Positions 3,341 to 55,468 of a stretch of DNA of 64,000 nt are shown in pieces. The notes beneath the pieces are model-generated. The model did not search any database, had not been told where the DNA came from, and saw nothing but the letters and a program-made list of their open reading frames with translations. The DNA is from a virus, in the IMG/VR virus record IMGVR_UViG_3300045988_051365; one strand, given 5' to 3'. A program made the translations under genes and the position numbers. How positions within the stretch are numbered: the first letter of the stretch is position 1; the number at the start of each line of letters is the position of its first letter.

Positions 3341-3517
3341 TCAGTCATTTGGAACTACATCTAAATCTGTCAAATAAAATGCATTGTCGTTTAAATCTCT
3401 TTGTACGAAGTATCCGTTAACTTCGACAGTTTCTCCTTTAAGAGTATGTATAGTTACTTCTCTGTCTTGGTCATACTTTTGGAGAATTTCAATCAGTTGT
3501 CCTACAAGTATTGCCAT
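3341..3517 (-). CDS. Small ORF of 58 aa, not in the track. It begins TAATG-overlapped with the Pnkp stop.
   Basis: My own translation is MAILVGQLIEILQKYDQDREVTIHTLKGETVEVNGYFVQRDLNDNAFYLTDLDVVPND. It ends in ATGA overlap with another 55-aa ORF. Confidence 0.3.
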   Translation of the reverse strand: MAILVGQLIEILQKYDQDREVTIHTLKGETVEVNGYFVQRDLNDNAFYLTDLDVVPND

Positions 3518-4443
3518 TAGAACTTACCCTCATTCGGTTGTAGACAAATCAAGCCTTCATTTCTCCACATCTCCACACACTTACAATTGTCTTCAAGTAC
3601 GAAAGGTATATAGAACTTGCCTTTGATATTATCCTCATACAGTTTCTTCTTACATATAGGACCAGCAGTAAAGCTCTTAGCAGGACGCATGAGAAGTATG
3701 TCAGGATGCAACCAATTGTTCTCTAACCACTGTTCCGTAGCTTTACGAACTTCAGGAGTATCCTCTCTACCAGTTAGAATTATTAACTTAGCTGGATAGT
3801 TATCACAGAAATTTCTAATAAGCTCAATGACAGGAGTAATAGGCTCATCAGTAAGCATACCTTCAGCTGCACCTTCTCCGTAGAAGGGACGGCCACTAGT
3901 ATTTAAACATACAGTTGCATCCATATCTACTATGATTGCTGCTGGTAGGTTAGTGTCTTGAACTAGTGTTCTAGCTTTAGCAGCCATGATTTCTTCATGA
4001 ATTATGAAGTCTTTATAGCGTCTCCAGGTCTGCCTAATAACCTTCTCACCTATAGGATGTTCTCTTTTAGCATCACGACGAACACACTCATCTACGGGAA
4101 TCCAGAAATCTTTGTATTCAATTTCATACTTCCAATCGTAGGTATAATTCTCGTTAAAGTCCTTAACCATCTTCTCTAACTCTGCACAAGTCTTAGGATT
4201 AAGGTTCATATTATCAACTACAATATTATAACCTTTCTCCATACTATAAGCTAGTACAGTGTTATAAGTTGCAGTGACAACATTCTCTCTACTAGGAACC
4301 CAATAGTCTCCTAACATGTTACGAATATCGTCATTGTTAAATCTTACTCTATGCTCCGGGTCTTCATGACACCACTGCTTAGCAAAACTAGTTTTGCCAC
4401 TTCCCTGAATTCCTCTACAGATTACTAATACTCTAGTTTCCAT
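3517..4443 (-). CDS. pnkp: Polynucleotide 5'-kinase / 3'-phosphatase, T4 PseT-like
   Basis: N-terminal P-loop CRGIQGSGKTSF. C-terminal HAD phosphatase motif IIVDMDATVC (DxDxT). Length and domain order match T4 Pnk. Confidence 0.85.
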   Translation of the reverse strand: METRVLVICRGIQGSGKTSFAKQWCHEDPEHRVRFNNDDIRNMLGDYWVPSRENVVTATYNTVLAYSMEKGYNIVVDNMNLNPKTCAELEKMVKDFNENYTYDWKYEIEYKDFWIPVDECVRRDAKREHPIGEKVIRQTWRRYKDFIIHEEIMAAKARTLVQDTNLPAAIIVDMDATVCLNTSGRPFYGEGAAEGMLTDEPITPVIELIRNFCDNYPAKLIILTGREDTPEVRKATEQWLENNWLHPDILLMRPAKSFTAGPICKKKLYEDNIKGKFYIPFVLEDNCKCVEMWRNEGLICLQPNEGKF

Positions 4444-4841
4444 TAATCAATATTACATAAAACATCACTAAATCCGCTATAATCTAAGTCAGCTAAAATG
4501 TCTCGTATAAATGATATGTAATCTCTAGTACTTTGTAAATCCCGTATATACTCTTTAGTGGATATTATCTCCTCTATAGATTCGGGATTACCATAACAGA
4601 ATTTCTCGTATTCTGTACGTCTAGTTTCTGCTTTAGTAATGTCAGCATCAATGTCTTGAATTACTGATTCAACATCACTAATAGTGAGTTTAGTATACTT
4701 CTCCTCATTACCAGCATATGCTATATTGAGATTGTCAGAGAATCTCTGATATACCTCGTTAGACCTACTAAATGATTGAAGTAGTAACTTCTCCTCCGGA
4801 TGTGCCCTAGGCACTAAGTAAAATGATAAATAACTACTCAT
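4443..4841 (-). CDS. Hypothetical protein, 132 aa
   Basis: ORF. TAATG overlap with the pnkp start. Confidence 0.5.
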   Translation of the reverse strand: MSSYLSFYLVPRAHPEEKLLLQSFSRSNEVYQRFSDNLNIAYAGNEEKYTKLTISDVESVIQDIDADITKAETRRTEYEKFCYGNPESIEEIISTKEYIRDLQSTRDYISFIRDILADLDYSGFSDVLCNID

Positions 4842-5614
4842 TTCTCGTTAGTTGGCTTAAGCCATAAATTGGTCTTACTAAAGATATAATCTCTAAGTCT
4901 TGGAAGGTAATCAAGATATGTTAAGGTTCTAATGGTATTGCATCTAAAACACTTAATCAGTTCCTCTCTAATTCTCTCCTCTGACACTACTGGCATTTTA
5001 GAATCATAATCATATAACACCATAGCTTGCCAAGTTGTTTGCTCTATTGTGAATCTCTTAGTAACCGCAAACCTAATGGCTCTAAGTATCCTAAGAGGGT
5101 CATCATCGAATGTTGTTACAGGGTCAAGGGGAGTTCTTATCAAAGCATTCTTTATATCATGCTTACCATAAAAGTAATCAATGATTTTTCCAGTATCGGG
5201 GTCTTTAGCCATAGCATTGATAGTGAAATCTCTGCGTGATAAATCATCATACAGATTTCCTGGTTCTACTATAGGAGTCCTAGTACCTGGAACATATCCT
5301 ACTTCCTTTCTAGCCATTACAAAATCTGCTACACCCTGGTACTTGTATCCTCCTGGAAACTTAGCACGTATAGTATAGCAATCTGGAGTTACTAAGAAGA
5401 TTTCAAAGCCTTCTTTCCTCAAATGACTTTCTAACATAGTGAAGACTGCATTAGTAGTATTTGGATAGATTCCGTCCACCAAACATTGTGCTTCCTCTAT
5501 ATTACGCAGTAACTCCTCACTGGGCACAGCAACATAATCAACATCCTTATTGGTAAGACCTAGGAGTTCATCTCTAATCTTACCGCCTACTTCATAAAAT
5601 TTAAAATCTTCCAT
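4838..5614 (-). CDS. cca: tRNA nucleotidyltransferase (CCA-adding family, class II). Short form with head and neck domains only.
   Basis: Motifs GGKIRDELLGLTNKDVDYV (GGxxRD...DxD), RRDFTINAMA and DPLRILRAIRFA. Confidence 0.8.
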   Translation of the reverse strand: MEDFKFYEVGGKIRDELLGLTNKDVDYVAVPSEELLRNIEEAQCLVDGIYPNTTNAVFTMLESHLRKEGFEIFLVTPDCYTIRAKFPGGYKYQGVADFVMARKEVGYVPGTRTPIVEPGNLYDDLSRRDFTINAMAKDPDTGKIIDYFYGKHDIKNALIRTPLDPVTTFDDDPLRILRAIRFAVTKRFTIEQTTWQAMVLYDYDSKMPVVSEERIREELIKCFRCNTIRTLTYLDYLPRLRDYIFSKTNLWLKPTNEK

Positions 5615-6286: not shown

Positions 6287-6587
6287 ATATTAATATGAGT
6301 TTATCAAATTCTTCATCTGTTCCTTCATAAGGAGTAATTTTATAGTTGTAGTAATCTTCCCACTCGATACTATCAACTACCTGTCTTATAGCTTCTTCAG
6401 TCATGTTATGATATTCATAACCTTCTGTAGTAACTATAAACGAATCTGGAACTATACCAACTGCAATTTCAAAAGCGTACGCATCAGCTGCATTGTTCAT
6501 GTCTTCATCAAACAAGCTCTCTGCGTATGCAGCATATCCACTATATGTTTCGAAATCATTAATGCAAGTTATAATATACCTGTTCAT
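6204..6587 (-). CDS. Hypothetical acidic protein, 127 aa
   Basis: ORF. Overlaps its neighbours in different frames. Confidence 0.45.
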   Translation of the reverse strand: MNRYIITCINDFETYSGYAAYAESLFDEDMNNAADAYAFEIAVGIVPDSFIVTTEGYEYHNMTEEAIRQVVDSIEWEDYYNYKITPYEGTDEEFDKLILIYDGRLRQRNSDSRVDEGEIEPVQGWVR

Positions 6588-7972
6588 TGGTCAGATTCTA
6601 TATCAACTTCACCTTTATCTAATGCTTTAGATTCTGCAAATAAGAATCTATTACATTTTAACTTATATGCCCCAGACAGACCGTCTTCTATACGAATTAC
6701 TATACCTTCATGTGGCACATCATTGTGACACTCCGGAGATAGTTCTTCCATGAAGAAATTCTTGTCCTCGGCTAATCTTTGTATGAAATTCTCATTCCAG
6801 TGTTCAGATACAGATATATCCGGATATAAATCCTTCGCATATCCATAATACAGTTCTGTTACCGGAGTGAGGCCCTTATCTTTACACCATTGTTGCACTT
6901 GTCTAGCACTAAATTCATACACTATTCCGTCAGGATTAGTATAAGTAATACGGTACACTCTGATACCAAAATGCACATTATACTTATATGGAGTAGTTTG
7001 AGTAGTAGGGTCCCATATCGGCATATCGTAACCATAATCATAAGCTTTACCTCCCATTGACTGAATTGCTCCTCCAGTAGGAAGCCAGCCTATAATTTCA
7101 TAATAAAGAGTTAATCCTTTAGTTAAAAATGGCTGTAATACTTTATGAGCTTCTCCCCACACATCACAGCCATAGTAACCCTCACTAACTTCCTTATTAT
7201 AATATTGGTTCTTTACAACCTTTCTAGAGGACCACAGATAGTCGTATGCAGTGTCAGGTACATAGGTAAGCCAGCCAGCCACCTTGTCTTTCCACTTCAA
7301 TTGCCTTTTGCATAACACATCTGCTGATATTCCAGACGTGCCATGAACTTTACTAGTAATACTAATAATGTCGTTTGGCTTAATTATCCATGGACACTTC
7401 TTAATAAGAATAGTATCGTAGTGGAATCTAAACTGATTGTCAACTAACTTGCTCAACCCTTTAGGCTGTTTACCAGTTCTAGTTTTATTGCTGGAGCCAG
7501 AAGTTCTATTCTTTAATACGTACTTCTTACAAATAAACAGGTTTCCTACCCTATCAAATTCAGTGCCGGCATCTATTCCAGTTACAGCTTCGGTATGTCC
7601 AAGAGAGCTTATCCATTTAGTAATGGACTCTATAGACATAATAAATCCTTCTGAAACATGGCCCTGCAACTTAATAATCTTCACTCTTCCGTTATCTTCG
7701 AAATACCCAGGTGCTGCCTCCTTGTCAGCATTCAGCTCAATATGTCTGAACTGGTTATTAGCTGACAAGAAAGAATAGTCAATAGCACATCCTATAGGGA
7801 AATACACATACATTCCAGGTTCTGTATCTTTACTAACCGAAATAGTATATCCGTCTATATGAGCACATTTAAGACGCTCGCACTTAGGGTTTGGGTGTGG
7901 TGTAAAATCGTGGATTTCTACAATCTTAGCACAATAGTTAATATTGATTTTAGGTGATTGATTTAATTGCAT
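6584..7972 (-). CDS. ATP-dependent RNA ligase (Rnl2-like nucleotidyltransferase motif I) with an N-terminal extension
   Basis: KVHGTSG matches the KxHGT lysine-adenylation motif of Rnl2-type RNA ligases. The gene sits beside pnkp and cca. Confidence 0.55.
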   Translation of the reverse strand: MQLNQSPKININYCAKIVEIHDFTPHPNPKCERLKCAHIDGYTISVSKDTEPGMYVYFPIGCAIDYSFLSANNQFRHIELNADKEAAPGYFEDNGRVKIIKLQGHVSEGFIMSIESITKWISSLGHTEAVTGIDAGTEFDRVGNLFICKKYVLKNRTSGSSNKTRTGKQPKGLSKLVDNQFRFHYDTILIKKCPWIIKPNDIISITSKVHGTSGISADVLCKRQLKWKDKVAGWLTYVPDTAYDYLWSSRKVVKNQYYNKEVSEGYYGCDVWGEAHKVLQPFLTKGLTLYYEIIGWLPTGGAIQSMGGKAYDYGYDMPIWDPTTQTTPYKYNVHFGIRVYRITYTNPDGIVYEFSARQVQQWCKDKGLTPVTELYYGYAKDLYPDISVSEHWNENFIQRLAEDKNFFMEELSPECHNDVPHEGIVIRIEDGLSGAYKLKCNRFLFAESKALDKGEVDIESDQ

Positions 7973-7999
7973 TCAAAACTAGTCAATAATTGCTTACAG

Positions 8000-8203
8000 C
8001 TAATCTTCAGCTAGACTCCAATCTTGACTTAAAATGGCATCAGGAAACCACTTAGTAACAACGTAGTACTGGTTAGAACCAGATATAGGAAGACAGATGA
8101 TATTGCCTTCCTTCATTCTGTAACGTCTCTTACTTGAGCTGATAACTGTCATACCTGCTCTCATCATAGATAAAGCTTCTCCAAAGTCAAATGTCTCGTT
8201 CAT
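8000..8203 (-). CDS. Hypothetical protein, 67 aa (TAG stop)
   Basis: ORF. Confidence 0.4.
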   Translation of the reverse strand: MNETFDFGEALSMMRAGMTVISSSKRRYRMKEGNIICLPISGSNQYYVVTKWFPDAILSQDWSLAED

Positions 8204-8220
8204 AATCTTATAAATTAAAA

Positions 8221-8523
8221 TTAAACAATCTTGTAGGATGATTCAACATATTCGTAAAGCTCATCCAATGTGCTTATAATTTCTTTACCCTCTTCGTCAT
8301 AGGCTTTTATATCTGGGTCTCCGGCTTTCTCGTAAACCCACCACATAATCCAGTCTATGCCTTCGTCAGTATAATTCTCCTTAAATATGGCCATAGCTAT
8401 ACATTCAGCATTACTGACTATATCACTGTCAGCAATATCAATTCCCATTTCAGACAATTTGAAACATCTGGAGTTGATAGCTTCCAATGAATTTACTACT
8501 TCTATAAAGTTCCCTTTTACCAT
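8221..8523 (-). CDS. Hypothetical protein, 100 aa
   Basis: ORF. Confidence 0.45.
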   Translation of the reverse strand: MVKGNFIEVVNSLEAINSRCFKLSEMGIDIADSDIVSNAECIAMAIFKENYTDEGIDWIMWWVYEKAGDPDIKAYDEEGKEIISTLDELYEYVESSYKIV

Positions 8524-8714
8524 ATTACACCTTTTAATTGTTCTTGAATTTCATTAATAGTCTTACTGTCATAACCTCTAAGAAGGTCTCTATAGAAATC
8601 AAATACAGTTTCATATAGCTGACTTTTATCCTCCTCTGATAGAGTATTCCCTACCAGAGAAGTCAATAAGTCTGCCACCTTAGCGCTTATAGATATTGAA
8701 GTTTTGTTAATCAC
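8517..8714 (-). CDS. Hypothetical protein, 65 aa
   Basis: ORF. Confidence 0.4.
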   Translation of the reverse strand: MINKTSISISAKVADLLTSLVGNTLSEEDKSQLYETVFDFYRDLLRGYDSKTINEIQEQLKGVIW

Positions 8715-8962
8715 AGATACATCAATGCGTTAGATAGTATTTTAATTAACTCTGCATCAGAGAAATCATCTACATTTAATAGTGTTTCTCTAATAACAAA
8801 GACATCATCATCTGGTTGATAATGCTTCCGCATAATATCAATCACATCATCTTCATTCCTAATTAATGTACTTCTTTTATATGCAACGTCTGATTCGTCG
8901 CGATATTTAAAGAACTCCATTTTAGGTTCGCCTTGCTGCCTATATACTACAATGTAATTCAT
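8711..8962 (-). CDS. Hypothetical protein, 83 aa
   Basis: ORF. Confidence 0.4.
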   Translation of the reverse strand: MNYIVVYRQQGEPKMEFFKYRDESDVAYKRSTLIRNEDDVIDIMRKHYQPDDDVFVIRETLLNVDDFSDAELIKILSNALMYL

Positions 8963-41760: not shown

Positions 41761-42627
41761 TTATAAAGGTTTGATATTGTCGAATATATTGTCCTCGGCT
41801 TCTACTCCCCATTTAGAATGAATCATTACTCCTATTGGAGTTACTTGAAACACAAATGGGTCATTATTGATAGGAATAATCTTCCTTTCCGGAACTGTAA
41901 ACTGCATCGTTTCATTCATTTCTTCAATAGGAGCGGCAATGAATAAGTCAGCACTGCTACATTCTTTTGAATCAGCAATGTTCACATCATGTGCCTTGGC
42001 TTTATTAAGGATATGAAAGAATGGATATGCATTCATTCTAGCCTTATTTCTACTCAAATACATAAGTCCAATATGGGAAGGTTCCTGCCTAATGAAGTAC
42101 CTTCCAACCGGATAGGACATGCTATCAATAGGCATAGGGTGAGTAGCAACTTGCATACCAGTAACATACCGTAAAGGTGAACCGTTTCCGCTATAGTTAA
42201 CATACTCATTTGCTTCAAGTGCTTGAGCAGTGGCCATTACCTTAGAGATTTCATCAATGTTCTCGTCAGGCACAGAACCTTTATAAGCTGATAGTCTTCC
42301 AACAACTAATCCATACTTAACATTCAGATTAATGAAATCCTCCTCCTTAAGTATCAATGAGCCAGGAAAATGTCTTTGCAAGAAGCTATAACATTTTAAA
42401 ACTTTAAGGTCCTCTTCCGAAGTGATAGCATCACCTACTTCTTTAGAATTAGTAAATCCTAAAGCTTTCAGTTTGACAGCCTTATCAACTAGTTGATGAT
42501 TCGGATTCAGACCCTTAATAGTCTTCATGTACTCTACAGCCATTAGAGTATAAGCTAATTGCACTTCTTGGGCTGTGAATCTCTTTGTGCCTACAGACGT
42601 ATCTGTAGAAGGACTAAAATTGTTCAT
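41761..42627 (-). CDS. Paralog family member B (...GVMIHSKWGVEAEDNIFDNI)
   Basis: See 38806..39744. Confidence 0.55.
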   Translation of the reverse strand: MNNFSPSTDTSVGTKRFTAQEVQLAYTLMAVEYMKTIKGLNPNHQLVDKAVKLKALGFTNSKEVGDAITSEEDLKVLKCYSFLQRHFPGSLILKEEDFINLNVKYGLVVGRLSAYKGSVPDENIDEISKVMATAQALEANEYVNYSGNGSPLRYVTGMQVATHPMPIDSMSYPVGRYFIRQEPSHIGLMYLSRNKARMNAYPFFHILNKAKAHDVNIADSKECSSADLFIAAPIEEMNETMQFTVPERKIIPINNDPFVFQVTPIGVMIHSKWGVEAEDNIFDNIKPL

Positions 42628-42747: not shown

Positions 42748-43173
42748 TTATCCTATTTCGTTACTAGCATTATAAGCAAGCTTGTCGGCTTCCTTATTAT
42801 GTTCATCACTTGCGTGACCTTTACACCACTCAACAGACACTACTTTATGCCTGTTCACAGCCTTATCAAGACGTTCCCACAAATCAGTATTGGCTTTCCT
42901 CTTCCACCCTTTAGTAAGAGTTCCTACAATATACATAGAATCTGTTACTATTGTAATTTCGGAAGGTTCCTTTATGGATTCCAGGGCAACTATGACAGCC
43001 ATTTGCTCCATTCGCTGATTGGTGCTGTTCTTATACATCTTACTGTATTGGAATATCTTTTTGTCATCCTCTAAAATGACAAAGCCTATTCCCCCTTGAT
43101 TTCTCGCAGGGGAATAGGCACCATCACAATATACCCTATACGAGTGTTTAACAGTATTCCCATTTAAAGCCAT
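42748..43173 (-). CDS. rnh: Ribonuclease H (RNase HI-like)
   Basis: YCDGAYSP...GGIGFVI, EQMAVIVALE, TDSMYIV, and WCKGHASDEHNKEADKLA with the conserved D/E/D/H/D residues. Confidence 0.8.
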   Translation of the reverse strand: MALNGNTVKHSYRVYCDGAYSPARNQGGIGFVILEDDKKIFQYSKMYKNSTNQRMEQMAVIVALESIKEPSEITIVTDSMYIVGTLTKGWKRKANTDLWERLDKAVNRHKVVSVEWCKGHASDEHNKEADKLAYNASNEIG

Positions 43174-43696
43174 AACATGTTTTAGCTTTTCCTTTACAGC
43201 AATCAGATATGTGTCTATGAGACTTAATACCTAAAGCTCTAGCTGCTTCTCTGATTCCATTCCAGACATTAATAATTTCACCATCTAAAGACACCTGTTT
43301 AACTCTAATCTTCTTGGCTTCATTCATCTTCTCTGGGATACGACTGTAATGATTGTTATAGCACCTGGAACACCACTCCAGATTGGAAACTCTATTGTCG
43401 GTCTTAATTTCGTTTATATGATTTATATCTGTAAATCCGTCGGGGTTTGGTATAAATGCTTCGGCAACTAATCTATGAACATTCCTGTTTCTACGAGTTT
43501 TGTTCTTAGTTAGCATAACTTTCACGTAACCATTACCACTTCTGGTAGGAGCTAGTATTTTACCTTTGACCAGGCGTGTTTTACCTCCTCTACAACCAAC
43601 AATTTTATCGTAGCTTCTCACATTACCTAACGTAGAAACTTGATAGAGTCCTTCATATCCAGTAATATCCTTCCACTCTTCAGACTTACTAGACAT
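43148..43696 (-). CDS. HNH homing endonuclease (NUMOD4 + HNH)
   Basis: NUMOD4 motif WKDITGYEGLYQVSTLGNVRS. HNH core HRLVAEAF...INHINEIKTDNRVSNLEW. Confidence 0.75.
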   Translation of the reverse strand: MSSKSEEWKDITGYEGLYQVSTLGNVRSYDKIVGCRGGKTRLVKGKILAPTRSGNGYVKVMLTKNKTRRNRNVHRLVAEAFIPNPDGFTDINHINEIKTDNRVSNLEWCSRCYNNHYSRIPEKMNEAKKIRVKQVSLDGEIINVWNGIREAARALGIKSHRHISDCCKGKAKTCYGFKWEYC

Positions 43697-43704
43697 GAAT
43701 AAAA

Positions 43705-44235
43705 TTATGCGTCGGCATTAGGATTCTCAACAAAATCCTCATCATCCTCATCTTCTTCGGTTTCGGATATGACATCCTCATCAATAAGATGCTTAACCCA
43801 CATACCTAAGATAAAGATGACATAGAATTTGTCTTCCTCCTGTTTGTAGTTAACCTTGTCAGAGACTTCATTAACTACATCTAACATTGTGAACTCCTCT
43901 TTAGCTATAGCATCATCAGCTATAGCAGACATTTCTTCTACATAAGGTCTAGCCTTCTGCATCGCTTCGTCAAAACTCTTTACTAAGGCTATGCCTTCAT
44001 CACCTCTAATCTGCATAGCAACAGATAGAGGTTGTTGCAATTCATTTCTAAAGAAGCCCAAATAGAAAGCTTTCTCTACATTTCCGTTCACGAAGTCATT
44101 GAAAGATTTAGCTTTCATTACTTCTTCTACTTTGAAATCAATTTCTGATACGTCTCTGATTTTGTCCATAATGTTATGATAGCAACCCACCAATCTTCTC
44201 GGCCATGGCTGTTGCTTTGTTAGAAACTGCTTCAA
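43705..44235 (-). CDS. Hypothetical acidic protein, 176 aa
   Basis: ORF. Confidence 0.5.
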   Translation of the reverse strand: MKQFLTKQQPWPRRLVGCYHNIMDKIRDVSEIDFKVEEVMKAKSFNDFVNGNVEKAFYLGFFRNELQQPLSVAMQIRGDEGIALVKSFDEAMQKARPYVEEMSAIADDAIAKEEFTMLDVVNEVSDKVNYKQEEDKFYVIFILGMWVKHLIDEDVISETEEDEDDEDFVENPNADA

Positions 44236-44425
44236 GGTTTGCAGCTTCAGTTTGTAATTCGATAATCTCTTGTTCTCTAACCTCTTTCTCTGCTTGAGCT
44301 CTAGATGCTACCTCTTTAAGATTGGTAACAGCTTTCTCAAATACATCAATAATCTTAGCTGATTCCTCGGCTAGTGAGGTACTTGTTACTTTAGCCGGTT
44401 CGGCTGATTGTTTCTTTCCAAACAT
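44174..44425 (-). CDS. Hypothetical coiled-coil protein, 83 aa
   Basis: ORF. Confidence 0.4.
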   Translation of the reverse strand: MFGKKQSAEPAKVTSTSLAEESAKIIDVFEKAVTNLKEVASRAQAEKEVREQEIIELQTEAANLEAVSNKATAMAEKIGGLLS

Positions 44426-44457
44426 CTTATAGGATTAGAATTACAGGGTTCAGGGTG

Positions 44458-44540
44458 AGCGGCTGTCGGGAATCGAACCCAATCTATCACTTGTGCGCAT
44501 ACTAAAATTAGTGATGTGCCCTCCTTTACACTACAACCGC
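44458..44540 (-). ncRNA. Aberrant tRNA-like gene. It has canonical acceptor, D and T arms but an 18-nt anticodon loop.
   Basis: Acceptor GCGGTTG/CAGCCGC. T arm TTGGG-TTCGATT-CCCGA. Anticodon stem ATCACT/AGTGAT encloses AATTTTAGTATGCGCACA. No 11-nt excision restores U33. Confidence 0.4.
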
Positions 44541-44807
44541 ATGGAGCAGTGGTTAGAATACTAATAGTCAAACACTAATAGTCATTCCTAAAGAGGTGTT
44601 CTGCAACCACCCCACAGTCAGCGCTAAACTGCACGTCTTATTACATACGCTCAACTCTGCTTTAGTTGTCATCGCTGGACTTTATTTAACCCAGATTCCA
44701 GCCTGGTCTATACTCGTTTCCTTTTAAGCTTACCACACTTAAGGCATACTAACAGATATCTGATACAGTCAGTATAGCTAGTCTTAGCTATTATACTCCA
44801 TTCATGC

Positions 44808-45227
44808 CTACATGCTCGCTTCTCTAGCCATTTTTTGAATAGTTCTTTCATAATCAATTCGTTTTACTAATGGATATAACTGTCCGTAGCCGTGATTAAC
44901 TGTTATACACCTAGATGTTATAGACAGACGATAGTGAGCATTGTTAATTTCGTTAGTAAGATACTCCATAGGTACAGGAGTTACTCCGTCACTAAATGTA
45001 ACAGTTATGCCCGCTTCTATATCTTCTACACTCTTAGTAAGAGCATCTAAGCTACTTTGAATTTCTGCATATCTAGGATTAGGAATCTGCTCCGTCTCTA
45101 AATGCATAAAATGCTTAGATGTTTCACCTATATAACCTCCTTTGCTACTTAGAGGAGTCATAGAGTTTCCCTTCTCTGAGGTTCTGAAGGATTTTCCTTC
45201 GGTCAATAGTCTCTCCTTGTAATGCAT
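44808..45227 (-). CDS. Hypothetical protein, 139 aa
   Basis: ORF. Confidence 0.5.
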   Translation of the reverse strand: MHYKERLLTEGKSFRTSEKGNSMTPLSSKGGYIGETSKHFMHLETEQIPNPRYAEIQSSLDALTKSVEDIEAGITVTFSDGVTPVPMEYLTNEINNAHYRLSITSRCITVNHGYGQLYPLVKRIDYERTIQKMAREASM

Positions 45228-45775: not shown

Positions 45776-45800
45776 AAATCCTCCTTCCTTTAATTATTAG

Positions 45801-45884
45801 TGGCTGGAACGGGAGTCGAACCCGCACAGGCAAATGCCCAGTAGAGTTTAAGTCTACCTCGGTTACCAATTACGACATCCAGCC
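45801..45884 (-). tRNA. tRNA-Leu (anticodon TAA), type II
   Basis: Acceptor GGCTGGA/TCCAGCC. Anticodon arm GTAGA-CTTAAAC-TCTAC. Long variable arm. T arm GCGGG-TTCGACT-CCCGT. Confidence 0.8.
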
Positions 45885-46867: not shown

Positions 46868-47719
46868 TTATCGGTATTTATCGAACATGCTGTCTGATGC
46901 TTCTTCTCCCCACATAGACACGATAACAATACCTACTTTGGTAGCCCTAAATACTATTGGGTCTTCTAACCTTCTTTTACGGTCTTCTTCAGCTTTAGAG
47001 AAGATTTCTATGCGAATATTATTCTCCATAGTATCATAAGGCGCGGCAATTAACCAAGCACTATGGTCTAGATATGAGGTGCCAAGATGTAGGTAATCTT
47101 CCTCCTTATAACTTCCACCTATAGACCTCATGTACTGATAACCACGGTCAATACCTTTGAATACAAATGGGAATCTAGAGAAATACTCAACAAGCCGTTT
47201 GGTCATGTCCTTAGACATTCTTGAATCTATTCTCGCAGCTTCAACCCAACTGACGTAGTTAAGATTTAAAGAGTTCAAAGCGTTAGAAGCTTTTGCTATT
47301 TGTGATACATTCTCACTTGGAATGAATCCGCTGAAGGTCGATATTGGACCACAATACAAATTGTACTTCTTCAGGATTGCAAAGAAATCCTCGTAAGTTA
47401 CAACCAGTGCATCAGGATACGATTCTTTAATACAGGATGTCATTTCGTTAACCTTCTTCAGGTCTAATTTCTCTGGGCCTAAAGCTGACTTATACTTCTT
47501 AGACTCGAGAATAGTCCTAAGGGTATCTGCATTCTTAGTTCCACCCAGACCTGCTGCTTCCAACTTACCAAGCTCCTCTTTGATTTGCTCGGAATTGTCA
47601 AAGTCTTGATTGCCTTCTACGTACTTCTTATAGTACTCCATAGATGCTGTTACTAAGGCTAAACGTAACGCATCTGCACTCAATTTCTCCATACTATGAT
47701 AAATGTTCTTTAATATCAA
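46868..47719 (-). CDS. Paralog family member C (...GIVIVSMWGEEASDSMFDKYR)
   Basis: See 38806..39744. Confidence 0.55.
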   Translation of the reverse strand: MILKNIYHSMEKLSADALRLALVTASMEYYKKYVEGNQDFDNSEQIKEELGKLEAAGLGGTKNADTLRTILESKKYKSALGPEKLDLKKVNEMTSCIKESYPDALVVTYEDFFAILKKYNLYCGPISTFSGFIPSENVSQIAKASNALNSLNLNYVSWVEAARIDSRMSKDMTKRLVEYFSRFPFVFKGIDRGYQYMRSIGGSYKEEDYLHLGTSYLDHSAWLIAAPYDTMENNIRIEIFSKAEEDRKRRLEDPIVFRATKVGIVIVSMWGEEASDSMFDKYR

Positions 47720-50692: not shown

Positions 50693-51760
50693 CTAAACTA
50701 ACTTATCGAATATCATGGGTTGTATCGACATCCATAAATTCGCTAGCATTTCTTGCTCTGCGTCAGATGCTTCATCCCAATGTGATACGTACAATTTCTC
50801 CGTTCGTTCATTCCTATAAGGAACTTTAAATGAACGGTTAATGCGTACACTGTGTGCGAATAGGTCTTTGTCGAAATCAATAGCCCTAAGCGTCTTCTGG
50901 AAATCGTTGAACTTATTATTAGGGTCATCGACATCCCTAACAGACATTCCAGAAGGAAACGGGCCGTTACCATGCCTTGTTATATAAGGACGAGTTACAT
51001 AACAAGTTTGGATTTCTTTACGTATACCTGCTTTCCGCAACAGCTCGTAAGCGTTTTGTGAAGTTGTATTAGACGGAGTACAATAAGGCATTATGCCGAA
51101 TCTTTGGTCAAGCAATATTCCCTGTGAACCCTCAAACACTAGGTTATCATAATTCAACAAGCAATCTTCATTAACCGTACCTGTATGTAAGAAATAAGCA
51201 TGTGCTAACCTACACCAGTTGTCTAGGTCTATCGAAGGATATTTACTAGACATGTTGTAATAGTTATCCACTATGGCATTTAGTTTCTCACGCAGTATGT
51301 AAGGATTCATACAATCTACAACTGTTAAGCTGTATCCTGCCTTAACTCGGTCCAAACAAGCTTTAAACCCTGTACCTACAGTACCATGTCGTAAGTTCTC
51401 TTCGTTATTAACTTGGGAATAGACATCGAAGGGAATTACAACTTGGCAGTGAGGGTGATACTGAACAATGGGACGAACTCCCATTTTAGCTAAGTCTGCA
51501 CCCTCCAACATAGAGGTAATTGGGTCTACAGTACAGTATTCGGACCAGTACGTCGGCACTCCAAGTAAGGTTCCGCTGCCAAAGTTACTAAAGGTATGCA
51601 TCATGTCTCCATGCTTTACAGTATGTCCTACTTGATGTCCACCACTAAACCTGACTACTAATACAGACTCTCGCTTACCTATGTACTTGTTACATAAGTT
51701 GTGAACTGTCTGTCCCTTACCTTCGTCTCCAAAGAATGTTCCTAATACAATACTAATCAT
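50693..51760 (-). CDS. Adenylosuccinate synthetase homolog, short archaeal-type. Candidate PurZ (N6-succino-2-amino-2'-deoxyadenylate synthase).
   Basis: 355 aa, versus about 430 aa for bacterial PurA. It carries GDEGKGQ (P-loop with the catalytic Asp), GGHQVGHT, and FEGSQGILLD...TPSNTTS, which are PurA-family signatures. Confidence 0.8.
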   Translation of the reverse strand: MISIVLGTFFGDEGKGQTVHNLCNKYIGKRESVLVVRFSGGHQVGHTVKHGDMMHTFSNFGSGTLLGVPTYWSEYCTVDPITSMLEGADLAKMGVRPIVQYHPHCQVVIPFDVYSQVNNEENLRHGTVGTGFKACLDRVKAGYSLTVVDCMNPYILREKLNAIVDNYYNMSSKYPSIDLDNWCRLAHAYFLHTGTVNEDCLLNYDNLVFEGSQGILLDQRFGIMPYCTPSNTTSQNAYELLRKAGIRKEIQTCYVTRPYITRHGNGPFPSGMSVRDVDDPNNKFNDFQKTLRAIDFDKDLFAHSVRINRSFKVPYRNERTEKLYVSHWDEASDAEQEMLANLWMSIQPMIFDKLV

Positions 51761-55361: not shown

Positions 55362-55380
55362 AAACTCTTATTAGCCAGCG

Positions 55381-55468
55381 CGGAGAGTGCTGGATTCGAA
55401 CCAGCGGAACCCTTTTGAGGTTCGGTCCCTTAGCAGGGGACTGGTTTAAGCCACTCACCCAACTCTCC
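55381..55468 (-). tRNA. tRNA-Ser (anticodon GCT), type II
   Basis: Acceptor GGAGAGT/ACTCTCC, anticodon arm GTCCC-CTGCTAA-GGGAC, long variable arm, T arm GCTGG-TTCGAAT-CCAGC. Confidence 0.85.

Follow-up and report, generated by a model that had tools for sequence, protein, structure and literature searches.

A conserved tRNA-like gene with an 18-nucleotide loop at the anticodon position, in the tRNA array of a large uncultured phage

The stretch of viral DNA analysed here (IMG/VR record IMGVR_UViG_3300045988_051365; 64,000 nucleotides (nt), hereafter the window) carries a tRNA-like gene within a long array of tRNA genes. The gene is an 83-nt cloverleaf on the minus strand, at 44540..44458, with canonical acceptor, D and T arms. 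It had been singled out in a reading of the letters alone, and its acceptor, D, T and anticodon-stem arms all lie where that sequence-only reading had placed them, as does the 18-nt loop at the anticodon position (44509..44492). Its parts are as follows.

44540..44534 / 44465..44459, minus strand: tRNA-like acceptor stem, 7 base pairs
44531..44516, minus strand: tRNA-like D arm
44514..44510 / 44491..44487, minus strand: anticodon-position stem, 5 base pairs, with a sixth pair possible
44492..44509, minus strand: 18-nt single-stranded loop AAUUUUAGUAUGCGCACA, replacing the 7-nt anticodon loop
44482..44466, minus strand: tRNA-like T arm
44458, minus strand: discriminator U, followed by C74 at 44457

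Read along the minus strand, the 5' part of the RNA is GCGGUUG UA GUGU AAAGGAGG GCAC A UCACU [AAUUUUAGUAUGCGCACA], and the part 3' of the AAUUUUAGUAUGCGCACA loop is AGUGA UAGA UUGGG UUCGAUU CCCGA CAGCCGC U. The D arm contains GG, the T arm contains UUCGAUU, and the variable region is 4 nt long. A covariance-model search against Rfam, which the sequence-only reading had named as a check, was run on 2 kb of sequence; the tRNA model RF00005 matched the element with 38.5 bits (E = 4.7e-6), above its gathering score of 29, and aligned end to end (model positions 1-71), the 7-nt loop being replaced by an 18-nt insert. The element was missed by a whole-window Rfam run with fast filters and was not called by default ARAGORN on the window, which reports it only in intron mode or at a lowered threshold. 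Its minimum-energy fold according to RNAfold is the cloverleaf with an open 18-nt loop, and the folding energy is unexceptional (z = -1.6). At E <= 10, no Rfam family except tRNA matched either the element or the leader RNA that precedes it (described below).

The element lacks the combination of 7-nt loop, U33, purine 37 and 3-nt anticodon that defines a decoding tRNA. The earlier observation that no simple 11-nt excision restores U33 holds generally: across all contiguous deletions, in both registers of the stem, position 33 is A, G or C.

Representatives of the element are nearly unchanged in 24 IMG/VR contigs and 33 metagenome contigs. Only three sites vary among these, namely loop position 2 (A to G), loop position 14 (G to A), and a G-to-A change in the T stem that turns a U-G pair into U-A. 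More diverged relatives were retrieved via a neighbouring 670-amino-acid (aa) protein, and a homologue of the element was then found with a covariance model. In L121, which is 67% identical in the 670-aa protein, the homologue GUGACUAUGGUGUAAAGGAAGGCACAUCACUUAAUUUUAGUAUGCACACAGGUGAUAGACUAGGUUCGAUUCCUAGUGGUCACA scores 82.7 bits in the element covariance model. All 21 pairs are kept between the window and L121, and five of them (three in the acceptor, two in the T stem) have changed on both sides. Apart from a single one-sided U-A to U-G change in the anticodon-position stem, neither that stem nor the D arm differs. The L121 loop is 19 nt long and differs from that of the window by one substitution and one inserted U. 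Over the central 52 nt of the element there are only four differences, and the flanking DNA is ~70% identical (~72% in the trailer, as counted on the alignment, and 67-68% in the neighbouring proteins). The compensated stems together with the near-invariant loop indicate selection on both fold and loop sequence rather than neutral decay, and the earlier suggestion of a pseudo-tRNA, in the sense of a gene in neutral decay, is contradicted by the compensatory stem changes and the conservation of the central 52 nt. The comparison shows a real RNA gene under selection, tRNA-shaped and unable to decode.

In a third lineage, L122, with 61-62% protein identity, the slot is occupied by a shorter element of 71-72 nt, CGCCAUU-AA-CAAUCGUUUUGAUCGGGU-CCAC[AGUACGCGUA]GUGG-C-AGGGG-UUCGAAU-CCUCU-GAUGGCG-A. 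Its acceptor and T arms are intact, its D arm is a mini-hairpin only, and changes within the lineage fit the pairing (G-U to A-U or G-C). Common to the window, L121 and L122 forms are an acceptor/T minihelix and a hairpin that displays AGUAYGC. Pattern scans of IMG/VR and the metagenome collection for the same anticodon stem or D arm combined with a 7-nt loop found none, and matched only the two big-loop lineages and, by chance, coding DNA. There was also no match when the region was compared with 50,697 GenBank phage records by blastn and megablast. The true tRNAs nearest to the element body are a phage tRNA-Gln(UUG) and the tRNA-Ala(UGC) of the window (same TCACT/AGTGA stem), and no clear parent was found among the true tRNAs compared.

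The end of the acceptor stem is not conserved across these lineages. The discriminator is U73 in the window, A73 in L121 and A73 in L122, and pairs 1-72, 2-71 and 3-70 are GC-CG-GC, GC-UA-GC and CG-GC-CG, respectively. Most true phage tRNAs with orthologues keep both the discriminator and the top acceptor pairs (for Gly, GCG..CGC with U; for Cys, GU..AC with U; for His, GUG..CAC with C). The variation among lineages therefore argues against a fixed aminoacylation identity. Glycine was considered as an identity because G1-C72, C2-G71, G3-C70 and U73 of the window form are like those of the phage tRNA-Gly, and was rejected because L121 and L122 differ.

The tRNA-like gene occupies a defined slot between a structured leader RNA and a conserved trailer, with the following neighbours.

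44542..44675, minus strand: leader RNA, 134 nt, with closing stem GCGAUGA/UCACUGC around five hairpins
44426..44457, minus strand: trailer CACCCUGAACCCUGUAAU... between the tRNA-like gene and the next open reading frame (ORF), conserved, also following the tRNA-Leu(UAA) of sister phages
44174..44425, minus strand: 83-aa coiled-coil ORF, always linked downstream of the slot
44708..44851, minus strand: 47-aa CxH...CxxC (zinc-ribbon-like) ORF, PHROG 7696, upstream of the leader
45800..45884, minus strand: real tRNA-Leu(UAA), without leader, 1.3 kb upstream of the tRNA-like gene

The 3' end of the leader (...UCCA) is 1 nt upstream of the 5' end of the tRNA-like gene. RNAalifold, applied to 14 distinct leader sequences, predicts 33 pairs, of which 14 exhibit compensatory changes, and a leader covariance model finds exactly one copy per genome region. 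The leader motif GGGGTGG-TGCAG-nnn-ACCTCTTTA retrieved 47 IMG/VR contigs and is absent from 185,579 bacterial and archaeal genomes, so that the leader is not a borrowed tRNA-Leu leader of the host. It is a newly recognised structured RNA, confined to this phage clade and without an Rfam family. The sequence-only reading had described a 240-nt ORF-free structured region at 44572..44807. A structured region does exist, at 44542..44675, and is supported by covariation, but the region is not free of ORFs, since it overlaps the 47-aa ORF at 44708..44851, which has homologues in L121 (8401..8550) and L122 (7528..7701).

In a more distant sister group with ~185-kb genomes, the leader is directly followed by tRNA-Leu(UAA) or, in one contig, by tRNA-Leu(UAG). 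Other sisters have the leader, an HNH homing-endonuclease gene and then tRNA-Leu(UAA), or the leader, a ~100-nt extra element and then tRNA-Leu. The tRNA-Leu(UAA) genes of the sister phages are followed by the same CACCYUGAA trailer and by the coiled-coil ORF. These arrangements show that the tRNA-like gene fills the exact slot held by tRNA-Leu(UAA) in sister phages. A natural deletion of ~2.2 kb in L002/L109 (IMGVR_UViG_3300045988_035487) keeps the tRNA-like gene and removes tRNA-Met, tRNA-Leu(UAA), several ORFs and most of the leader; it joins a 283-aa ORF (window 46868..47719) to leader hairpin P4 via the microhomology TGTGGGG. A scan of the minus strand for sigma-70 promoters or terminators near the element yielded nothing.

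The leader-tRNA junction is an insertion hotspot. An HNH gene is located there in three contigs (L142 7800..8330, L143 and L157), and in L143 a 5' fragment of tRNA-Leu adjoins the HNH cassette. A stem-closed element of ~100 nt, ACUAAGAGG...CCUCUUAGU, is found at the junction in L148/L150/L158/L159, and L121 has ~115 nt of extra sequence there (8645..8758). Another homing endonuclease gene, of the NUMOD4/HNH_3 type, lies ~760 nt downstream of the element (43148..43696, minus strand); it is absent at the syntenic position in L121 and L122, and is therefore regarded as a mobile insertion. Upstream of the leader, a 139-aa ORF (44808..45227, minus strand) appears to have arisen by a deletion that joined two ORFs, both of them intact and independent in L121 (94 aa at 6985..7269 and 390 aa at 7266..8438).

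The window comes from a large uncultured phage with roughly 28 real tRNA genes and itself includes 22-24 of them, all on the minus strand and spread over 36.9-63.4 kb, among them a CUA suppressor. NrdD, a DnaB-type helicase, primase and DNA ligase are also encoded. Relatives of the phage occur only in metagenomes, in contigs of 172-317 kb, and all those with a named source are from the human gut. A Shine-Dalgarno-like motif precedes only 5 of the 39 long ORFs, which suggests a Bacteroidota-like host, the host itself not being established. Three clustered genes make up a complete tRNA repair kit.

3517..4443, minus strand: Pnkp (polynucleotide kinase-phosphatase), Pfam HAD_PNKP 4.7e-25 and AAA_33
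4838..5614, minus strand: CCA-adding tRNA nucleotidyltransferase-like enzyme, Pfam PolyA_pol
6584..7972, minus strand: RNA ligase, PHROG 968 'RNA ligase' 8e-41

The product of 4838..5614 also matches the NCBIfam CCA tRNA nucleotidyltransferase (4e-31, under the curated cut-off). All tRNA genes in the window, and the element as well, encode N73-C74 and never a full CCA, which is consistent with dependence on the phage CCA-adding enzyme.

Several other features of the array are unusual. At 61172..61240 (minus strand), Rfam detects a tRNA match of 38 bits that ARAGORN misses, with the anticodon GUU (Asn) and a T loop collapsed to GCGAG-U-CUCGC. Sister contigs have an intact tRNA-Asn in the equivalent position (L194 11510..11582), and this gene looks like a truly degenerate tRNA, in contrast to the tRNA-like gene. 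The suppressor tRNA with anticodon CUA (63340..63412, minus strand; labelled 'Pyl' by ARAGORN) suggests UAG read-through or reassignment in part of the genome, and the ORFs of the window are intact under table 11. A plus-strand call of tRNA-Arg(tcg) by ARAGORN (55365..55441) overlaps a minus-strand tRNA-Ser(gct) (55380..55468), lacks Rfam support, and is probably a false positive. In relatives, odd calls include a 75-nt 'tRNA-Leu(caa)' without a long variable arm (L196 2126..2200), and tRNAs with a 2-nt anticodon in a 6-nt loop and a 4-nt anticodon, uaaa, in an 8-nt loop (L222 457..531 and L223 4523..4595, respectively). Paralogous ORFs of 283-288 aa and without a Pfam family lie among the tRNA genes (41761..42627 and 46868..47719, minus strand). 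A 355-aa homologue of adenylosuccinate synthetase (50693..51760, minus strand) belongs to PHROG 1211 ('2-aminooxy adenylosuccinate synthetase') and weakly matches NCBIfam PurZ; it may hint that 2-aminoadenine replaces adenine in this phage.

The most likely role of the element is that of a tRNA mimic rather than a decoder. A mimic, a decoy for host tRNA nucleases and a regulatory RNA had all been offered as explanations on first reading. A mimic or regulatory RNA fits best with the invariant loop, the unfixed acceptor identity and the repair kit, while the decoy role is one that we infer, as no partner or target was found. As to what such a mimic would do, we tentatively favour a bait or decoy on a tRNA scaffold, or another function mediated by the loop, and rate this at somewhat below an even chance. 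The acceptor stem, D arm, T arm and N73-C74 are like those of true tRNAs, so the RNA is presumably excised like a tRNA and then CCA-tailed. RNase P would cut the 5' end, the 3' end would be trimmed, and CCA would be added, with the phage's own CCA-adding enzyme available for this step. The product would be a stable L-shaped RNA of ~86 nt, and its working surface would be the unstructured 18-19-nt loop AAUUUUAGUAUGCRCACA, held on the invariant D arm and anticodon stem. This RNA could then bait a factor whose usual ligand is the anticodon arm of tRNAs. The least certain step, and one that we regard as doubtful, is that this factor would be a host tRNA-directed defence nuclease, which the RNA would titrate or block.

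A decoy or inhibitor of a tRNA-directed nuclease would be the most attractive specific mechanism. Pnkp, RNA ligase, the CCA-adding enzyme and an almost complete tRNA set, all present in this genome, are classical counter-measures to anticodon nucleases. PrrC-type nucleases classically attack tRNA-Lys, and T4 responds to them with enzymes of the Pnkp and RNA ligase class (PMC3014915), and phage tRNAs have been proposed to counter anticodon nucleases (PMC10264068). The start of the loop, A-[AUUUUAG], matches U33-UUU-A37 of tRNA-Lys, and the loop of the phage tRNA-Lys is CUUUUAA.

A number of observations weigh against a bait or another function of the loop. The similarity to the tRNA-Lys loop amounts to 5/7 bases in an AU-rich context and may be due to chance. 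Conservation of the loop has modest statistical weight (roughly p = 0.01 in a simple binomial calculation), and the argument from it is limited since only two deep lineages carry the big loop. The second hairpin of the L122 element has a loop of 10 nt, which has AGUAYGCG and nothing more in common with the big loop, and this reduction implies either that the big loop is not essential or that the function is reduced in the L122 lineage. Searches for a pairing partner were unrewarding as well: in a duplex-energy scan of both strands of the window, the best site (-20.3 kcal/mol) is on a par with that of shuffled loops (-20.2 kcal/mol), and the exact 18-mer, sought on both strands of 185,579 genomes, gave five chance matches, fewer than expected. 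The remaining points come from tRNA-Val. In intron mode, ARAGORN removes 14 nt from the L121 element to give a tRNA-Val(AAC) with the loop UUAACAG, and no tRNA-Val gene occurs in the window, L121 or L122 arrays, whereas sisters with tRNA-Leu in the slot have Val(UAC).

The gene might instead be a processing module only, that is, a degenerate tRNA kept as an RNase P / RNase Z site and having a big loop without a function of its own. Cleavage would free the upstream leader and the downstream mRNA from a polycistronic transcript, either as tRNA punctuation or in the manner of MALAT1-mascRNA. The location of the element, 1 nt after the leader and in the slot of true tRNAs in sister phages, is in line with this role, as is the lack of a conserved acceptor identity. 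Also, the acceptor and T arms, a minimal RNase P substrate, are all that the L122 type has retained, its D and anticodon arms being remodelled. However, conservation between the window and L121 is highest in the D arm, the anticodon stem and the loop of 18-19 nt, none of which is needed for processing. The leader and the tRNA are split by an HNH gene or by 100-130 nt in several genomes, so their adjacency is not required, and the L002/L109 deletion has lost most of the leader but kept the element. We consider a pure processing module unlikely.

An antisense RNA on a tRNA scaffold, in which the loop would pair with a host or phage RNA and the body would provide stability and processing, is improbable. 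An invariant, unstructured loop of 18-19 nt on a stable scaffold is what such an RNA would need, and tRNA scaffolds stabilise inserted RNAs. Yet the 64-kb window contains no complement of the loop, either exact or with three mismatches, and no complementary site above chance was found in the 64 kb of phage sequence or, as exact matches, in the 185,579 genomes. Two of the five 18-mer matches in those genomes are sense-strand coding sequence in Paludibacteraceae.

Other proposals for the loop were tried and rejected. A kissing dimer through the palindrome UGCGCA is incompatible with natural variants and L121, which have UGCACA. For a mimic of a T4 RegA-type operator, agreement with the consensus from systematic evolution of ligands by exponential enrichment (SELEX; PMC3014915) extends to no more than 8 of 15 positions, and a RegA was not identified. 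A mini-ORF beginning at the AUG in the loop (16 codons, with a UGA in the trailer, in both lineages) was judged a by-product of tRNA constraints, given that L122 lacks the frame. Pairing between the loop and the hairpin loops of the leader is limited to 4-bp palindromic matches, at chance level.

Distinctly improbable, in our assessment, is that the gene encodes a tRNA-Val(CAC) with a mini-intron of 13-14 nt (44496..44508) in the 5' half of the anticodon loop. The proposed route to such a product is no more probable: the RNA would be cut by a host anticodon nuclease or an unrecognised phage enzyme, and phage Pnkp and RNA ligase would reseal it. A tRNA with a non-canonical intron was among the first explanations put forward, and a part of the evidence agrees with it. 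When the stem is taken as AUCAC/GUGAU, ARAGORN in intron mode removes AUUUUAGUAUGCG (44508..44496, 13 nt) from the window element, which leaves UACACAA as the loop of a tRNA-Val(CAC); in L121, a different cut, placed by hand, gives a perfect UU-CAC-AG loop, with discriminator A73. The tRNA-Val(AAC) call in L121 and the missing tRNA-Val genes, both noted above, point the same way. Moreover, Pnkp and RNA ligase are the healing-and-sealing half of a splicing pathway and are encoded 37-41 kb away in the window, and enzymes of this type have been reported to be able to complete tRNA splicing (compare PMC1920235). There is a precedent, RloC, for a bacterial tRNase that cuts twice in the anticodon loop (PMC2610378).

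What speaks against splicing is that a canonical loop is not obtained in both lineages. The abundant window form would give UA-CAC-AA, with A33 and together with U73, and obtaining the same anticodon in both lineages requires a different intron or a different final loop length. The L122-type element cannot mature by such splicing at all. In a bulge-helix-bulge (BHB) structure, 3-nt bulges flank a 4-bp helix and set both cuts. The one drawn manually for the window (UAA bulge / UUUU:ACAA helix with a U-C mismatch / CGC bulge) is very weak, and that for L121 requires a 4-nt bulge. No splicing endonuclease came to light in the scanned ORFs of the window, the phage is of a bacterial type and, to our knowledge, protein-spliced tRNA introns are not known in bacteria or their viruses. 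GUG accounts for only 15% of Val codons. The missing tRNA-Val represents a single shared event in one clade and thus is not independent evidence; tRNA-Pro is also missing from window-type arrays. Finally, the self-splicing group I introns of bacterial tRNAs have ~200 nt or more and a P1-P9 core, and the insert here has 11-14 nt and no Rfam intron match.

Highly improbable is a non-functional relic or an element acting at the DNA level, whether a tRNA pseudogene with the scar of a mobile element that inserted and was excised, an attP-like core or an operator. HNH genes and short insertions recur in the slot, the window also has the truly degenerate tRNA-Asn-like gene at 61172..61240, and the first letters of the loop, ACUAAUUUUA, are similar to the 5' edge of the L142 HNH cassette, but five pairs have changed in a compensatory manner and none is broken at ~30% flanking divergence, the loop is near-invariant, no integrase is nearby and both tRNA halves are present.

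If the element is a tRNA mimic, as we think most likely, it would extend what phage tRNA arrays are thought to do. These arrays are seen as weapons against tRNA-cleaving defences, and all documented cases involve replacement tRNAs that work as such. With a conserved tRNA look-alike that does not decode and that displays a dedicated loop of 18 nt, there would be a first candidate for an RNA decoy or bait in this setting. The phage clade is found in dozens of human-gut metagenome assemblies and also encodes Pnkp, RNA ligase and a CCA-adding enzyme. The modular slot between leader and trailer is occupied in different genomes by tRNA-Leu(UAA), tRNA-Leu(UAG), two tRNA-like forms and homing-endonuclease insertions, and both the leader and the tRNA-like RNA are short and well delimited. 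Should splicing turn out to be true after all, a bacterial virus would have tRNA splicing catalysed by proteins, possibly with a link to host defence activity, and self-splicing introns could no longer be regarded as the only tRNA introns of bacteria and their viruses.

Among the known systems close to the element are canonical phage tRNAs (RF00005), such as those in the array of this phage. The element shares with them the acceptor stem, the GG of the D arm, UUCGAUU, N73-C74, the strand and array, and a score above the cut-off. Unlike them, it has a loop of 18-19 nt without U33, R37 or an anticodon, and its discriminator and top acceptor pairs vary. Transfer-messenger RNA (tmRNA) and the YrlA (Y-RNA-like) tRNA mimics resemble it in combining an acceptor/T-arm module with a replaced anticodon arm. 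However, an ARAGORN search for tmRNA was negative, neither has an Rfam match to the element even at E <= 10, the element is a plain closed cloverleaf, and its 3-70 pair is G3-C70 rather than the G3:U70 of tmRNA.

The tRNA-like 3'-end processing modules of MALAT1-mascRNA and MEN-beta, which belong to eukaryotic nuclear RNAs, are similar in that a cloverleaf lies directly downstream of a longer structured noncoding RNA. Because the leader ends 1 nt before the element, RNase P cleavage would set the 3' end of the leader. In contrast to MALAT1-mascRNA, the loop is the most conserved part of the element, and leader and tRNA are separable in relatives. T4 transcribes small RNAs of unassigned role from its tRNA region (PMC3014915). 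The element resembles these non-tRNA small RNAs in being embedded in a phage tRNA cluster and presumably matured with the tRNAs, but no sequence relationship was detected (blastn, 50,697 phage records); the element forms a full cloverleaf, and the leader, 134 nt long, forms a junction of five hairpins.

Intron-containing pre-tRNAs of archaea and eukaryotes are spliced at BHB structures (PMC4090602). Like these, the element has an insert of 13-14 nt in the anticodon loop, and healing and sealing enzymes are encoded by the phage. It differs in that no convincing BHB and no endonuclease were seen, the phage is of bacterial type, and the product would be non-canonical in the main lineage.

Phages also have RNA-based means of anti-defence, among them RNA anti-CRISPRs and pseudo-ToxI, and these RNAs imitate a host or defence ligand, as is proposed here for the element. 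A non-decoding tRNA decoy is not reported in the literature searched. Nuclease-resistant phage tRNAs act in the same context of tRNA-cleaving defences (PMC10264068). The published cases are functional replacements that carry point changes in a normal 7-nt loop, whereas the element described here would present an enlarged loop on a tRNA body that does not decode.

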